IMG/VR virus record: IMGVR_UViG_3300021964_009400
Length of the DNA stretch: 64,000 nucleotides
Source: a virus
Lineage: Duplodnaviria > Caudoviricetes
Direction: 5' to 3' (one strand)
Part shown: piece by piece, positions 6,682-49,177 of the stretch
Position numbering within the stretch: position 1 is the first letter of the stretch
Layout: the number at the start of each line of letters is the position of its first letter
Translations under genes and position numbers: made by a program
The notes under the pieces: generated by a model
Told to the model about the DNA's origin: nothing
The model's database searches: none
The model's input: only the letters and a program-made list of their open reading frames with translations

Positions 6682-6976
6682 AATAGATGAGCACCAAAGA
6701 GAACTAATTACTGATTTTATCAGATTCTCTCATATGTGGATGAACCAACGAAAAAAACCAAAAATTACTGAAATTCAATTGGATACATGGAAATTTGAAG
6801 GTAGAAAGGGAATCCAAAACTTCAGACGGGTATTGGGTAATATACGAGAAGAAGGTGAGTATGATGATAGAGAACAAAAACAATTTTTGTTGGAAGCAAG
6901 AAATTGGTTTTTAAAAGAGTTTAAAAATCAATGGGGTGATTCTTATACAAACGTTTTTCCAAAAAGATATGAATAA
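6674..6976 (+). CDS. hypothetical protein
   Basis: 100-aa ORF overlapping neighbours, phage-like codon use. Confidence 0.65.
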   Translation: MNKIDEHQRELITDFIRFSHMWMNQRKKPKITEIQLDTWKFEGRKGIQNFRRVLGNIREEGEYDDREQKQFLLEARNWFLKEFKNQWGDSYTNVFPKRYE

Positions 6977-7130
6977 AAGATTATTAGAAATTTTAGAAAC
7001 TCTCAGAGAAGATTTTGAGATGTTACGAGATGGTTCTTGGGATTTAACTTATTCCGATGGAACTGAAATAGAATCATCATTAGATAATATAGAAGAAGCA
7101 ATAGAAATAGTTACGAATGAGCAAAAATAA
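6969..7130 (+). CDS. small acidic hypothetical protein
   Basis: ATG 6969 overlaps the previous stop region (MNKRLLEILETLRED...). Confidence 0.55.
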   Translation: MNKRLLEILETLREDFEMLRDGSWDLTYSDGTEIESSLDNIEEAIEIVTNEQK

Positions 7131-7234
7131 AGAAGATTGGTTAGAAGAGTTGGTAAAAAAGTATTCCATACCAACTGATGATAAAACCGAAAAAAGAGGA
7201 ATACTTTCAGAAACACAGATGAAAAATTTAAAAG

Positions 7235-23131: not shown

Positions 23132-23163
23132 TTTGGTGATGTGGAAAAAAAATCGTAACTTTA
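23132..23163 (+). promoter_or_regulatory. Bacteroidota-type promoter
   Basis: TTTG-N20-TAACTTTA, 10 bp downstream of the third palindrome. Confidence 0.6.
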
Positions 23164-23222
23164 GGGTGGTTGTGGGTGGGAGTGTACACACAGGAGTAAA
23201 CGAGTGGAGAGAAAAAAAAGTG

Positions 23223-23281: not shown

Positions 23282-23446
23282 ATGGCAAAAAAGATAAAAA
23301 AAGTAATCAGTAGAGGGGAGTTAGAGAGGATATTATTGAATCCTAACTTTATAGGGGATATGGAGAGTATCTCTAGTATGATGAACCCGAGAGTTTTATA
23401 TACTGTACTGAATAAGATTGAGAGATTTAACGGAATTAAATTATAA
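23282..23446 (+). CDS. small hypothetical early protein
   Basis: ATG 23282 downstream of promoter copy 4; the GTG 23204 extension runs through the promoter. Confidence 0.55.
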   Translation: MAKKIKKVISRGELERILLNPNFIGDMESISSMMNPRVLYTVLNKIERFNGIKL

Positions 23447-23451
23447 AAAGT

Positions 23452-23640
23452 ATGAGAGACAAAATCAAAATGGGTGGAATTGGAGTGGTATCTGCATTAA
23501 TTATATTATCAGTACCGCTATTTATTAAGTTTTTCTTTCGAGGTATTCTTATGATAATGAATAATCCTTTGGAAAGCGTGGGGTTTTTCGGACTCCTGTT
23601 TGGAGTAACACTTATCTATATTCTACTTACCGAAAAATAA
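23452..23640 (+). CDS. small membrane protein
   Basis: Two hydrophobic segments. Confidence 0.6.
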   Translation: MRDKIKMGGIGVVSALIILSVPLFIKFFFRGILMIMNNPLESVGFFGLLFGVTLIYILLTEK

Positions 23641-23656: not shown

Positions 23657-23702
23657 AAAAGCCATTGTAGTCTCAGTTTTTTTTCGTATATTAGTCATGT
23701 AA
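23657..23702 (+). promoter_or_regulatory. repeated early promoter cassette, copy 5
   Basis: CCATTGTAGTCTC 23662-23674; TATATTAG 23687-23694. Confidence 0.75.
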
Positions 23703-24009
23703 TATGATTGATGATTGAGAAAATAGGGTTTGATTCCCTCTCTAGTTAATCGAAAAGACCTCTCCCTTGTAGATATAGGGGGCCGTCAGTAGTGGTTGGG
23801 AGATACACCTACTATAAAAACTGAATCTCTTTTAAAAATAACGGTGTAAGTCTTTATAGGAAATGAAAGATACTCGAGCTACCGTAAATCAGCCATCGGT
23901 TAGGGGTTTCCGATGGTATCAATAGGGTGATTACTCACTCTCTCCTATCCTAAAGTGTTCGTCCGAACCACCCACTAAGTTGTATCACCCTTCTTAGTGG
24001 GTTTTTTTT
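23702..24009 (+). ncRNA. candidate structured non-coding RNA (~300 nt)
   Basis: Between promoter copy 5 and a terminator; no ORF; GC-richer with several stems (CCATCGG/CCGATGG, ACGGT/ACCGT, TCTTT/AAAGA, ATAGG/CCTAT with GTGA/TCAC). Confidence 0.65.
23971..24009 (+). terminator. intrinsic terminator
   Basis: CCCACTAAG/CTTAGTGGG 9-bp stem followed by T8. Confidence 0.8.
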
Positions 24010-24046
24010 ATCCAATTGTTAATAACTTTTGACGAAAATAATTCAA

Positions 24047-24092
24047 AAAAGCCATTGTAGTCTCAAAAAAAAATCGTATATTGGTGGTGTAA
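24047..24092 (+). promoter_or_regulatory. repeated early promoter cassette, copy 6
   Basis: CCATTGTAGTCTC 24052-24064; TATATTGG from 24077. Confidence 0.7.
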
Positions 24093-24094
24093 TA

Positions 24095-24442
24095 ATGAGT
24101 AAGAGTTTAAACATTAAAATAAATAAAAATATGAGTAAAATAATAGGTTCAGCGTTAAAAGAGTTAAAATCAGTAGGTTCGTGTATTGATATAGATTTAG
24201 GGATTGTATATCCATTAAATGAAGATAGTACTCCTGATTGGGATTCACCAATAGAATTATTAGATGATGAGGTATCCTCAGAATGGATTGCGGCCTTATC
24301 TTCTGAAGATTACCAAATATGTAAACCCTTTATAGAATCAATAGATGTAAAACAACTAGCAAATGATGTTATCAAATATGGAATATTAGAAACAAAAGAA
24401 TCAAAAGAATTAACCAATTGGATAATGAATAGAAATATGTAA
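24095..24442 (+). CDS. hypothetical early protein
   Basis: ATG 24095 after promoter; TTG 24029 extension overlaps the promoter. Confidence 0.65.
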   Translation: MSKSLNIKINKNMSKIIGSALKELKSVGSCIDIDLGIVYPLNEDSTPDWDSPIELLDDEVSSEWIAALSSEDYQICKPFIESIDVKQLANDVIKYGILETKESKELTNWIMNRNM

Positions 24443-24462
24443 ACCCTTTATAGAATCGTAAT

Positions 24463-24651
24463 ATGTACACAAACGAAAGATTAGAACAACATTATCATAA
24501 TGAAGCCCGTACCTTTATGGAACTTCTTGATATGAAGTATAAAATGCGGAATAGAATTTCACTTGATGAGTACCTTATAGAGTATAAGGATATACTAAGT
24601 AATAAAGAAAAAGAAAGAGGAGAAGTTCTGATAAACTTAATTACCAACTAA
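24463..24651 (+). CDS. hypothetical protein
   Basis: 62-aa ORF in tandem array. Confidence 0.55.
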   Translation: MYTNERLEQHYHNEARTFMELLDMKYKMRNRISLDEYLIEYKDILSNKEKERGEVLINLITN

Positions 24652-24728: not shown

Positions 24729-24971
24729 ATGGAAGGAACAATATTTAAACACAGAAATTGTATAATAGAAAAAACACCTACTAACACTATACCAGATATG
24801 GTGACGATAACCAAGACACCTAAACTAAGAGAAGATTTCTTAGGTAAAAGATACATCAACTTAGAAGCGGCCTTTAAACAAATAGAGTTGTTCGAAGATA
24901 TGAGGTTGATAAGAAGTAAGGAGAAATATGTAAAAGCACAACTAATTGATGTTGTGGTAGTGGAAGAGTAG
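24729..24971 (+). CDS. hypothetical protein
   Basis: 80-aa ORF. Confidence 0.6.
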   Translation: MEGTIFKHRNCIIEKTPTNTIPDMVTITKTPKLREDFLGKRYINLEAAFKQIELFEDMRLIRSKEKYVKAQLIDVVVVEE

Positions 24972-25553
24972 TGGAGGTTTCTTGTAACTGAGCAGGTCGC
25001 AGGTCATGTAGTTGAGCTCGGAGTGGTTTTTTTATCGAGGTTGACTTTTTACCCTATGGAAAAAACACCCTATACTAACCCTATGGTTAGGTTGCTCTAT
25101 CACATTGTAGACCTGCACACTTAAGGTAGGGAGTACGAGGTTTAAAATTTAAAATAAAAATTATATGTTAATAATAAAAAGAAAAAAGGGCGAAGATATG
25201 GATAAGATGTTAAAGAGATATAAATCTAAAGTTAAAAGGACAAAACTTATTGAGGAAGTTAGGGGTAGAACGAATTATACTAAGAAGAGTGTTAAGAAAA
25301 GAAAATTACTGAATAAGGGGAAGTGGATTCAGTCTATCGTTAGTAGTATGGAGTAGTTTTATATAGGTATTACTATATACACTATATGGGTCTATATTAT
25401 TATTGTTACCGATAATGTGTTTTAATCGAGGTTATGAATTTTATGAGAAACTTGATTTTATGGATAAAAGTTATCCTTATCAGATTACCTAAAGAAATAT
25501 GGTATCAGATAGAACAACTATATTATGATGAAAAACTTAAAAAAAATTAAATT

Positions 25554-39486: not shown

Positions 39487-39973
39487 AAGAGAATTACTAC
39501 TTGTAGGATTTGTTATTATGGCGGTGTTGGTAAGATTATTACCACATCCACCAAACTTTACACCAATAACAGCACTTGCTTTATTCGGTGGAACAACATT
39601 TAAAAACAAGTGGTTGGGTATCTCTTTACCTTTAATAGCAATGGGGATATCTGATATGTATTTAGGTTTCTATGGTATCTCTTATTGGGTATATGGTTCG
39701 TTCTTTCTTATTAGTATATTAGGAACCTATTGGAAAAAGATAAGGGTTAAGAATGTATTTATTTCATCACTTATCTTTTTTATTATTACCAACTTTGGAG
39801 TTTGGTTAATGGGTGGTTATCCAAAAACAATAGAAGGAATTCTATTATGTTATACAATGGCATTACCATTCTTTCTTAACTCTATTGCTGGAGATTTCTT
39901 TTTCAGTTATCTATTGAAATTTTCATTTAGATATTCTGAAAAGAAAATATTGCTCGGTTCGTCTAACGGTTAG
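39473..39973 (+). CDS. DUF6580-like putative transport membrane protein
   Basis: RLLPHPPNFTPITALALFGG, FFIITNFGVW, CYTMALPFF; last codons overlap tRNA-Glu. Confidence 0.7.
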   Translation: MKMNKRELLLVGFVIMAVLVRLLPHPPNFTPITALALFGGTTFKNKWLGISLPLIAMGISDMYLGFYGISYWVYGSFFLISILGTYWKKIRVKNVFISSLIFFIITNFGVWLMGGYPKTIEGILLCYTMALPFFLNSIAGDFFFSYLLKFSFRYSEKKILLGSSNG

Positions 39974-40023
39974 GACCTCAGGTTTTCATCCTGGTAATAG
40001 GGGTTCGATTCCCCTACCGAGTA
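39952..40023 (+). tRNA. trnE: tRNA-Glu(UUC)
   Basis: Acceptor GCTCGGT/ACCGAGT, anticodon arm TCAGG-TTTTCAT-CCTGG, T-loop GTTCGATT. Confidence 0.9.
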
Positions 40024-40069
40024 CAACTATTGTTCATTGAAATATTGTTTAATTAAAAAAAAGAAAATT

Positions 40070-40432
40070 ATGGAAACACTTTATATTGTAATAGGTGCAT
40101 TCTCATCCATCTTTATATTCCTTTTGGGGTATGCGGTGAGTGGTGTATTTAATGGAAAAAAGCGATTAAATTATTTAGAATCCTATATAGAGGATGCTGA
40201 AATACAAATAGCAAATCTCAATAGAGATATTAACGAAAGAGTTAATATTGATGTTGAGATGTTATCTGGTAATATTACTGAATTAGATAGAGATGTTCAT
40301 TCTCTAATTGATTCAAGGTTAGATAAATTAGAAAGTAAATTGAAGGAAATGATTCCACCTACCAACGAAGAGTTGATAAAACGAATCAAAAAAATAGAAG
40401 AAGAATCTTACAGATTAAGAATGAATATGTAA
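40070..40432 (+). CDS. membrane-anchored coiled-coil protein
   Basis: N-terminal TM helix, heptad-like tail; ATG 40070. Confidence 0.65.
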   Translation: METLYIVIGAFSSIFIFLLGYAVSGVFNGKKRLNYLESYIEDAEIQIANLNRDINERVNIDVEMLSGNITELDRDVHSLIDSRLDKLESKLKEMIPPTNEELIKRIKKIEEESYRLRMNM

Positions 40433-40455
40433 GATATTAAATTGAACGATAGTTA

Positions 40456-40543
<88 letters not shown>

Positions 40544-40544
40544 T

Positions 40545-40618
40545 GGGGGATTAGCTCAGCTGGCTAGAGCACTTGATTTGCATTCAAGAGGTCATCGGTT
40601 CGACTCCGATATCCTCCA
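40545..40618 (+). tRNA. trnA: tRNA-Ala(UGC)
   Basis: GGGGGAT/ATCCTCC with G3:U70; CTTGA-TTTGCAT-TCAAG. Confidence 0.9.
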
Positions 40619-40638
40619 CTAATTTAAATTAATTAATT

Positions 40639-40857
40639 ATGAAAAATCTATTAGTATTATTTTTTATAACATCAATCTTTGTTAGTTGTACTGACAAAAA
40701 GAAAGATAAAAAAGTATGTGATGTTTGTAAAAAACAAATGACAGAAGAAGTTGTAACAGATTCAAATTCGGTAAAGTTAGAAGGTTTGATAAATGCAGAT
40801 ACTACCGAATTGGAAACACCAACTCCTGAAGTTGTAGAAGAAGTTATTAATCAATAA
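40639..40857 (+). CDS. small lipoprotein
   Basis: Signal peptide ending FVSC (lipobox). Confidence 0.6.
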   Translation: MKNLLVLFFITSIFVSCTDKKKDKKVCDVCKKQMTEEVVTDSNSVKLEGLINADTTELETPTPEVVEEVINQ

Positions 40858-40866
40858 TAAATTCAA

Positions 40867-40940
40867 GCCTTTGTAGCTCAGCTGGCTAGAGCAGCTGATT
40901 TGTAATCAGCAGGTCGTGGGTTCGAGTCCCTCCGAAGGCT
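40867..40940 (+). tRNA. trnT: tRNA-Thr(UGU)
   Basis: GCCTTTG/CGAAGGC, GCTGA-TTTGTAA-TCAGC, GTTCGAGT. Confidence 0.95.
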
Positions 40941-40953
40941 CTTAATAAATAAA

Positions 40954-48734: not shown

Positions 48735-48941
48735 ATGATAAAAGTAAACGATAAAATAAAATTTGAAAATAAGTATGGACAAATCCAAGAGGGAATTGTT
48801 ACCGATAATAACTACCAATGTGAATTTGATGCAGACCTTAATGGTTGTGTTAGAGTATCGGTAGATTATGGTAGTAGTATTATTGGAACTGTAAATACAT
48901 TAATCGATAAATCACAAATCTTAAAAAACGTAAAATTATGA
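48735..48941 (+). CDS. small beta-rich (SH3/Tudor-like) hypothetical protein
   Basis: KVNDKIKF...GIVT...VRV pattern. Confidence 0.5.
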   Translation: MIKVNDKIKFENKYGQIQEGIVTDNNYQCEFDADLNGCVRVSVDYGSSIIGTVNTLIDKSQILKNVKL

Positions 48942-49177
48942 GTAAATCAAATGAAAGATATCCTAATGGGTACATGGGTAAAATTGAGTATTGGACTAGT
49001 AAGTTGAATGCTGAGGTTATGAATACGAAAGTTCCGAACTTGGAGGAGATAGATAGGATTCACCGAAAGTTAGATTACTTTATCCAAAGACAATTCGATA
49101 CACAAGTAATTCTGAAAGAACCAGAACAACCTCTAGTGGGAGATACGTTCTTAAGAAGTATCGGAATTTTAAAATAA
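48938..49177 (+). CDS. hypothetical protein
   Basis: 79-aa ORF, ATGA overlap. Confidence 0.6.
   Translation: MSKSNERYPNGYMGKIEYWTSKLNAEVMNTKVPNLEEIDRIHRKLDYFIQRQFDTQVILKEPEQPLVGDTFLRSIGILK

Follow-up and report, generated by a model that had tools for sequence, protein, structure and literature searches.

GOLLD (RF02032) is a phage-encoded RNA of ~800 nt whose 3′ part is conserved; its 5′ part varies and may include tRNA-like elements, and tRNA genes lie near it. We know of no function established since 2009 for GOLLD or for the other large orphan phage RNAs. Smaller stable phage RNAs are the species 1 and 2 RNAs of phage T4 and the pRNA of phi29, which have their own expression signals and are located among early or tRNA genes, with the pRNA belonging to phi29-like packaging motors and the T4 RNAs being processed from a tRNA cluster. 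A further point of comparison is provided by the lambdoid nut sites and the boxB-boxA-boxC signals of rrn leaders, in which a covarying stem with a fixed loop is placed next to boxA early in an untranslated transcript.

The window analyzed here is a stretch of 64,000 nucleotides of viral DNA, and the unit described below occupies ~310 nt of it (Table 1). On sequence grounds it appears to resemble the GOLLD-type orphan phage RNAs in kind and, in one module, the signals of nut sites or rrn leaders. The likeness to GOLLD lies in the phage origin, the conserved 3′ and variable 5′ parts, the tRNA-like elements found in some 5′ parts and the tRNA genes nearby. Substantial differences occur in the length (~310 nt compared with ~800), in the lack of an Rfam match, in the conserved core having no similarity to GOLLD loci beyond a single hairpin, termed H1, and in a pairing of the terminator loop with the RNA body that forms a predicted pseudoknot. 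With the nut and rrn signals H1 shares a covarying stem, a fixed loop and a position early in an untranslated transcript, at many loci with a boxA-like sequence nearby. It differs from them in its 21-nt loop, which does not resemble a GNRA pentaloop, and in having boxA at varying distances and on either side; for H1 we know of no N-like protein, and some copies follow tmRNA genes with no boxA, the comparison being one of sequence and structure only. The T4 species 1 and 2 RNAs and the phi29 pRNA are alike in being small phage RNAs with their own expression signals but have no sequence or structure relation to the unit.

An RNA unit with its own promoter and terminator

The window is AT-rich, with every long ORF on the + strand and four tRNA genes at 39952–40941 (ARAGORN). 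The unit has a GC content of 40% compared with 29% for the window, and no ORF of 25 amino acids or more is present between its promoter and its terminator. The promoter is one of nine copies in the window of a cassette, CCATTGTAGTCTCA-N9-CGTATATT, all of which are on the + strand and none of which is expected by chance. The first-pass annotation had the unit begin directly behind the fifth copy, and the count of cassettes bears this out. Copy 5, with its cassette at 23662–23692, has a −33/−7 layout (TTG-N19-TAnnTTnG) and from its sequence appears to be a promoter of the Bacteroidetes sigma-A type. The Maribacter rrn operon promoter has the same layout, and the relatives of the unit have the same arrangement upstream. 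Transcription probably starts at ~23699–23702. The terminator stem with its T8 run has a calculated energy of −15.2 kcal/mol and is retained in 10 relatives with compensatory changes. This end of the unit had already been assigned with a 9-bp stem, and the stem is now seen to have 10 bp. A simple terminator scan missed it because the 13-nt loop exceeds the scan's loop limit of 8 nt.

Table 1. Positions in the window of the RNA unit, its signals and its structural elements
Feature	Position	Strand	Description
Promoter cassette copy 5	23662–23694	+	TTG 23665–23667, 19-nt spacer, TATATTAG 23687–23694
ORF-poor RNA unit	23699–24009	+	between promoter cassette copy 5 and stem + T8
Variable 5′ domain	23699–23840	+	unrelated in L188; compensatory changes relative to L140
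Stem GATTGA/TTAATC	23713–23718 with 23746–23751	+	encloses T-arm-like hairpin 23725–23739
GAC/GTC + CTCCCT/AGGGGG	23757–23787	+	
AGTAGTG/CACCTACT stem	23788–23813	+	
Degenerate boxA-like element	23826–23838	+	TCTCTTTTAAAAA
Hairpin H1	23841–23885	+	P1, GTA bulge, P2, 21-nt loop
H1 P1	23841–23845 with 23881–23885	+	followed by GTA bulge
H1 P2	G23850, C23852, T23853, T23854 with 23876–23879	+	
H1 loop	23855–23875	+	21 nt; core invariant AGG-NN-ATGAAAGATACTC
20-codon ATG ORF (MKDTRATV...)	23863–23925	+	starts inside H1 loop; judged non-coding
Hairpin H2	23892–23917	+	8-bp stem, conserved loop TTAGGGGTTT
Segment X	23924–23931	+	AGGGTGAT; pairs with X′ in terminator loop
Single-stranded stretch	23940–23955	+	CTCTCCTATCCTAAAG; near-invariant, CU-rich, 16 nt
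Hairpin H4	23957–23968	+	4 bp, GTTC-GTCC-GAAC
Intrinsic terminator	23970–24009	+	10-bp stem 23970–23979/23993–24002, 13-nt loop, T8 24002–24009
Segment X′	23984–23991	+	ATCACCCT; inside 13-nt terminator loop

At gathering scores no family of Rfam 15 matches in the window, the families considered including 6S, GOLLD, ROOL, HEARO, pistol and hammerhead as well as Flavo-1, IMES and others. Lowering the threshold to E ≤ 10 on the stretch gives nothing real, the top match being snoU31b over the promoter (23 bits compared with a cut-off of 37), and the tmRNA model (RF00023) scores 5.9 bits compared with a cut-off of 47. ARAGORN finds no tRNA or tmRNA within 23699–24009, where a cloverleaf, or an acceptor and T-arm with a tag ORF, was looked for (ARAGORN, RF00005/RF00023), and the only tRNAs in the window are the four listed above. 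These results agree with the first-pass view that hallmarks of tRNA, tmRNA and 6S RNA are lacking. Rfam searches of the loci of 14 relatives at E ≤ 0.05 return nothing except tRNA and tmRNA, and the Rfam comparison that had been proposed as a check thus yields no known family for the unit or for its relatives. No account of the H1 hairpin or of the RNA family was found in the literature on GOLLD, tmRNA, boxA and Bacteroidetes. The RNA family is new, being absent from Rfam, from cultured phages and from the papers found.

The single-sequence fold of the unit is not better than chance (z = −1.63, with 8 of 100 shuffles folding equally well), and the case for an RNA therefore rests on the comparison with relatives. 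At least 12 related units occur in marine and estuarine metagenome contigs, and the unit is present with promoter and terminator in G001, L137, L140, L142, L152, L156, L171, L188 and others. L172 has two full paralogous copies ~940 nt apart with the loop variants GGUGAUG and GGAAAUG. G001, an IMG/VR sequence of 128 kb reached via L097, has a comparable unit that shares the promoter type and likewise ends in a terminator, and the 52-nt core of this unit is 89% identical to that of the window compared with only about 65–70% for the surrounding coding DNA. A first viral scan with a 14-mer of the promoter cassette had given mostly chance matches, with only L077 and L097 being relatives, and a DNA search of the whole unit against 50,697 GenBank phage records produced no genuine match. 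Relatives differ in where the unit lies among its neighboring genes.

The homologous units carry both promoter and terminator, and their helices covary among the related metagenome and viral sequences, so that the earlier proposal of a novel structured RNA with its own signals is upheld, as is the covariation anticipated for it. The unit is discrete, conserved, structured and non-coding, with a host-type promoter, an intrinsic terminator and a modular build, and 23699–24009 is very probably a real structured RNA gene. It belongs to a large uncultured phage, probably one infecting marine Bacteroidota. The closest cultured relatives by helicase are the Cellulophaga phages phi4:1 and phi17:2 and crAss-like/Bacteroides phages (~38% amino acid identity), and the DNA runs containing the stretch are estuary, marine and salt-marsh metagenomes.

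Contigs from RNA libraries (metatranscriptomes) of three studies cover 23667–23957, some without mismatches and some from L137-like relatives, and none fall in 23288–23639 or 23992–24500; the RNA run X19 contributed no contig. This distribution hints that the RNA is far more abundant than the mRNAs of its neighbors; strand, ends and abundance are unreadable in assembled RNA contigs, DNA carry-over is possible, and the parts of the stretch without cover in the RNA runs X20, X21 and X23 are no proof alone.

Hairpin H1 and its distribution

The long type of H1, to which the window copy belongs, is formed by a P1 stem of 5–6 bp, a 3-nt bulge (G/A-U-A), a short P2 stem with one bulged base and the loop. 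An ungapped alignment of 25 long-type copies has 84% of cells paired, compared with 24–47% for partners slid by 1–3 columns, with all six P1 pairs changed on both sides and one P2 pair seen as U-A, C-G and A-U. The observed score is attained by 0 of 500 shuffles, a control that overstates significance because the sampled sequences are mutually related, and RNAalifold predicts the same helices independently. For the short type (33 copies) 82% of cells are paired compared with 20–55% in the controls, and 11 of 12 pairs are changed on both sides. The invariant U-G pair of H1 and its other G-U pairs place the RNA on the + strand. The outer ACGGT/ACCGT stem of the first-pass annotation corresponds to P1 and is confirmed by the covariation; the inner TCTTT/AAAGA stem is unsupported, these bases pairing instead with GAGC 3′ of the loop.

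In true copies of H1 the conserved 21 nt always form the hairpin loop and the stems differ. The loop core reads A-N-AGG-NN-AUGAAAGAUACUC. Outside the N positions, variation is seen at the first three bases only, apart from a single copy that reads GAC in place of GAU. This invariance is partly by design because the scans used exact words; a second scan anchored on the promoter and the stem, not on the loop, gave loop variants. With its invariant loop core and covarying stems in ~80 distinct copies, H1 is boxB-like in this respect.

The exact 20-mer from 23856–23875 of the window is found at 14 IMG/VR and 64 metagenome loci, which represent 48 distinct contexts. The collected motif carriers comprise 81 distinct 68-nt sequences and place H1 in ~80 distinct phage contexts, the non-genuine members of the 81 being L192, a chance match with no stem, and L162, set aside as a chimera. 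In L162 (1579–1646) the 5′ flank is of the L127 type and the 3′ flank of the window type, the change falling at the H1 loop, and P1 is unpaired; the cause is either a recombination event at the 28-nt word common to both or a chimeric assembly. No second H1 is present in the window at up to 3 mismatches. The exact 20-mer has no match in 185,579 prokaryote species genomes, and a degenerate H1 scan of the same genomes gives 13 matches. Twelve of these were rejected as chance matches at protein starts reading MKDTR, and the one true copy is on a 2-kb contig that was binned with a Bacteroidetes MAG and also has a tmRNA. A search of the GenBank phage records with H1 alone at E ≤ 10 returned no true match, and no cultured phage with H1 was found.

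The surroundings of H1 vary. In four freshwater phage contigs (L117, L119, L122 and L126) it is located ~600 nt upstream of an Rfam GOLLD match, a further point shared with GOLLD loci, and in these contigs it has its own Bacteroidetes-type promoter (TTGACA ... TAAGTTTG) and precedes a second promoter, a small hairpin and boxA. The minus strand of L126 at ~6900–7200, upstream of GOLLD, shows three tandem promoter and hairpin units, with H1 in the first, another hairpin in the second and, in the third, a small AAUG-loop hairpin followed by boxA, a layout that recalls the tandem promoters of rrn operons. H1 follows a phage tmRNA by ~30 nt in L124, L144 and L148, with a T-run next, follows tmRNA and tRNA-Met in L314, and precedes tRNA-like sequences in L120, L147, L153 and L157. 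In about a dozen contigs it heads a different downstream RNA, directly after a small conserved protein gene termed ‘YW’. Many unrelated uncultured phages thus have H1 at the head or the tail of another non-coding RNA gene, usually with a boxA word of the rrn type no more than a few dozen bases away. One phage-confined hairpin links GOLLD loci, phage tmRNA genes, tRNA-like elements and the new 310-nt RNA family, and it provides a concrete bait for pull-downs.

Homologues of the ‘YW’ protein (..GY..KI.YW..KL....KL.YF..RQ..) end 30–90 nt before H1 in 13 contigs. The protein was dropped as an obligatory partner of H1 since the homologue in the window (48938–49177) has no H1 after it. The phages with H1 after tmRNA have a TTGACG-N16/17-TATAAT promoter directly following, as seen at 2233–2260 of L124, which is not of the Bacteroidetes type. 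The presence of a TATAAT-type promoter beside tmRNA-linked H1 implies that the hairpin may not be confined to phages of Bacteroidota.

The unit was previously described as having no ORF beyond 12 codons, which is incorrect, as an ATG with AGG 3–4 bases upstream opens the 20-codon ORF of Table 1. A small peptide (MKDTR...) would be one possible product of the unit. The start codon is located in a hairpin loop, and neither the length nor the frame of the ORF is conserved among copies, the ORF opened by the loop ATG having 5 to ~29 codons elsewhere and an indel in L137 breaking the frame. The third-position variation of a coding sequence is also missing, with a single third-position change in AAA GAT ACT among ~80 H1 copies. 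Third positions that are nearly fixed next to stems that diverge freely indicate selection on the nucleotides and not on a peptide. That the unit encodes this peptide, or that it is a functionless decaying remnant, is highly improbable, and covariation and conservation across distant phages speak against decay.

The conserved 3′ core and the variable 5′ domain

The conserved core is formed by the 3′ 180 nt of the unit and contains H1, H2, segment X, a CU-rich single strand, H4 and the terminator, the whole 3′ module being common to 11 sequences. A scan of IMG/VR with the 3′ core pattern gave no match, and the core is thus known only from metagenome contigs. H2 is seen with five different stems, each of them complementary, around a loop kept as UUA(A)GGGGUUU, and the CCATCGG/CCGATGG helix annotated earlier is confirmed by this covariation. 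H4 shows a compensatory change in L169 (GTGC-ATCC-GCAC).

Segment X is located just 5′ of the invariant CUCUCCUAUCCUAAAG. The X/X′ pair is AGGGUGAU/AUCACCCU in the window and L188, GAGGGACC/GGUCUCUC in L137 and L140, GGGGACU/AGUCUCC in L156 and GGAGACC/GGUCUCC in most other sequences. The pairing is replaced wholesale between these classes, cognate duplexes having energies of ~−14 kcal/mol compared with −4 to −9 kcal/mol for combinations across classes. An alternative partner of X is available locally at 23935–23941 (the CUCUCC region). The ATAGG-GTGA/TCAC-CCTAT stem of the first-pass annotation is at best an alternative to the better supported pairing of 23924–23931 with 23984–23991.

The strands follow in the order X, T5′, X′, T3′, which is that of the H-type pseudoknots at RNA 3′ ends, and both pairings are supported by covariation. 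A difference is that in the unit the intrinsic terminator itself makes up the second stem; the gap between X′ and the terminator 3′ strand is a single base, an unusual geometry, and the two pairings may alternate. X:X′ and the terminator stem would form either a coexisting pseudoknot that locks the 3′ end or an alternating switch. The design, with a terminator loop tied back to the RNA body and a swappable 5′ domain, is unusual and of interest for RNA structure work.

By eye, the CU-rich strand between X and H4 matches the complement of two loop sequences, AUAGGA of H1 and UUAGG of H2, a possible pairing in which no covariation is seen. An invariant unpaired stretch of 16 nt beside a terminator hairpin is also found in many bacterial small RNAs, and pairing of X with CUCUCC or with the terminator loop would hide or expose the strand. 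The unit may on this basis be a trans-acting RNA whose CU-rich strand pairs with purine-rich targets, or a sponge whose purine-rich loops (AGGA, AGGGG) take up a partner rich in pyrimidines, for example a free anti-Shine-Dalgarno tail, possibly in connection with ribosomal protein bS21, whose gene is confirmed at 25165–25356, ~1.2 kb downstream. Either form is unlikely. The search for a target gave none, the energies of duplexes with a flavobacterial rrn operon come near those of shuffled controls, three Bacteroidota genomes show no enrichment for the complement of the H1 loop, and bS21 is near the unit in only one relative, L188. An rRNA mimic or antisense RNA was rejected, the best identities to a Maribacter rrn contig being 13–14 of 22 and the H1 and H2 duplexes falling within the shuffled range.

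The 5′ domain of the window is common to L137, L140 and one of the L172 copies. Compared with L137 and L140, the window has the additional T-arm-like hairpin at 23725–23739 and is without a 50-nt hairpin just before H1. Two helices of this domain had been annotated previously. The CTCCCT/AGGGGG stem is present but invariant, with covariation confined to the flanking GAC/GUC, which changes to GGU/ACC, and the AGTAG/CTACT stem is supported by one compensatory change (AGUAG/CUACU to CGUAG/CUACG). In L188 the core is almost identical to that of the window and the neighboring proteins are 83–96% identical, whereas the 5′ domain is unrelated. The exchange of the 5′ domain between close relatives with the 3′ core fixed shows the family to be modular. 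The 5′ domains of L123 and L152 contain by eye a 7-bp acceptor-like stem and a GGUUC(A/G)A-type T-arm, an element not called by ARAGORN or Rfam.

The tRNA-like features raise a further alternative, in which H1 docks tRNA-like molecules or the RNA is a decoy diverting a host nuclease that attacks tRNA. The acceptor and T-arm element of L123 and L152 and the T-arm-like hairpin of the window are in line with this, as are the tmRNA genes, tRNA-like elements and tRNA arrays adjoining H1, and the loop pentads UAGGA and UGAAA fit the T-loop pattern. The T-loop reading is one of pattern matching, ARAGORN and Rfam call none of the elements a tRNA even at E ≤ 0.05, and many H1 copies have no tRNA within 2.5 kb. 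A tRNA-related role is very unlikely.

Candidate functions of H1 and of the RNA

Most short-type loci that extend far enough have the word GTTCTTT[GA]AA 37–325 nt downstream of H1, often only 17–23 nt past the H1 loop; it precedes H1 in several long-type loci. In the Maribacter rrn leader, AGTTCATTGAAAT comes after a hairpin and ~115 nt ahead of the 16S gene, which supports reading GTTCTTT[GA]AA as a boxA of the rrn type. The boxA-like element of the window has 2 mismatches to GTTCTTTGAAAA in its best register, and such matches are not enriched in the AT-rich window.

The best explanation of the locus, to which a probability of roughly 0.45 is given, is an independently transcribed RNA gene of an undescribed family with H1 as a factor site working with boxA and with a stable trans-acting RNA or RNP as the product. 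That H1 is a loading site together with boxA is proposed tentatively by analogy. The H1 loop would be recognized by a protein, either phage-encoded or a conserved host elongation or processing factor, and H1 and boxA would act as boxB and boxA do in nut sites and rrn leaders. Loaded on the polymerase or the nascent RNA, the complex would let an untranslated, highly structured RNA be completed and folded without Rho termination. Rrn-type antitermination in E. coli is not known to override intrinsic terminators, and T8 would therefore remain the stop point. Locked or stabilized at its 3′ end by X:X′, the product would be a stable RNA or RNP acting in trans. Against a loading site stand the degenerate boxA-like element of the window, the tmRNA-linked copies in L124, L144 and L148, which lie before a T-run and have no boxA near, and the 21-nt loop, which far exceeds any known boxB loop. 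A testable idea that follows is that Bacteroidota phages may use rrn-like loading signals to make untranslated RNAs.

The same signals could serve a cis-acting leader of the lambda pL-nutL-tL1 or PR′-tR′ kind, in which boxA and H1 make the polymerase terminator-resistant so that it reads past T8 into the downstream small genes and bS21, leaving the short RNA as a by-product. In many phages H1 adjoins boxA near the transcription start, and the order of promoter, leader and strong terminator ahead of genes on the same strand fits such a leader. The lambda PR′ promoter also makes abundant short terminated transcripts and is a precedent for them here. However, the next downstream gene is provided with a promoter cassette of its own, 43 bases past the T-run, the placement of the unit varies among relatives relative to their genes, and L172 carries two copies. 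Moreover H2, H4, the single strand and X:X′ are conserved or covarying and would be needless for a loading site. A cis-acting leader is rather unlikely.

An extension of the preferred reading, an RNA gene with H1 as its factor site, would make H1 a universal handle by which one factor engages GOLLD, phage tmRNA, tRNA-like RNAs and this family. The pseudoknot-locked RNA would be a scaffold presenting an exchangeable 5′ cargo, tRNA-like in some phages, to the translation or defense machinery of the host. This extension is unlikely; if true, these RNAs would form a new, modular class of RNA effectors of phages, and experiments on GOLLD-type RNAs could for the first time start from H1. The roles guessed at in the first-pass annotation (antitoxin or anti-defense decoy, ribozyme, replication primer) found no support. 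For the ribozyme, no ribozyme family is matched and the 21-nt H1 loop has no internal helices, and for the placement of the unit beside an origin, nothing links the two.

The nearby bS21 and tRNA genes hint at a link to translation, so that the translation biology of phage and host is also concerned. Within the tRNA cluster, GTTCATTGAAAT at 40032–40043 lies directly after tRNA-Glu and is a better boxA-like copy than the element at 23826–23838. It matches the boxA-like word of the Maribacter rrn leader, which from the sequence suggests that the tRNA genes of the phage have antitermination signals of the rrn type among them. Of the neighboring genes the best conserved (24729–24971, 60–96% identity) encodes an 80-amino acid protein (YKHRNCIIE...VTITKTPK...) and is located downstream of the RNA unit in nine relatives. 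The protein has no Pfam or PHROG match, and its AlphaFold model, a confident one (pLDDT 86; three strands and a long helix), has no fold match in the PDB at E ≤ 0.001.

Between this gene and bS21, the non-coding stretch 24975–25145 contains GAGGTTGACTTTTTACCCTATGGAAAAAAC. A similar sequence is found in L115 and, as GAGGTCGGGTTTTCTCCCTAGGGAAAACC, in the 3′ part of the RNAs that H1 heads in the L127 group. Judged by these similarities it may be a second conserved RNA element. Upstream of the unit, a promoter-like site at 23132–23215 is followed by a G-rich run, TTTAGGGTGGTTGTGGGTGGGAG. L137, L140 and L142 have the same element after the RNA terminator, so that the two units do not keep one order among relatives. 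The complement of GGGUGGUU is found in AACCACCC, which lies at the foot of this terminator.
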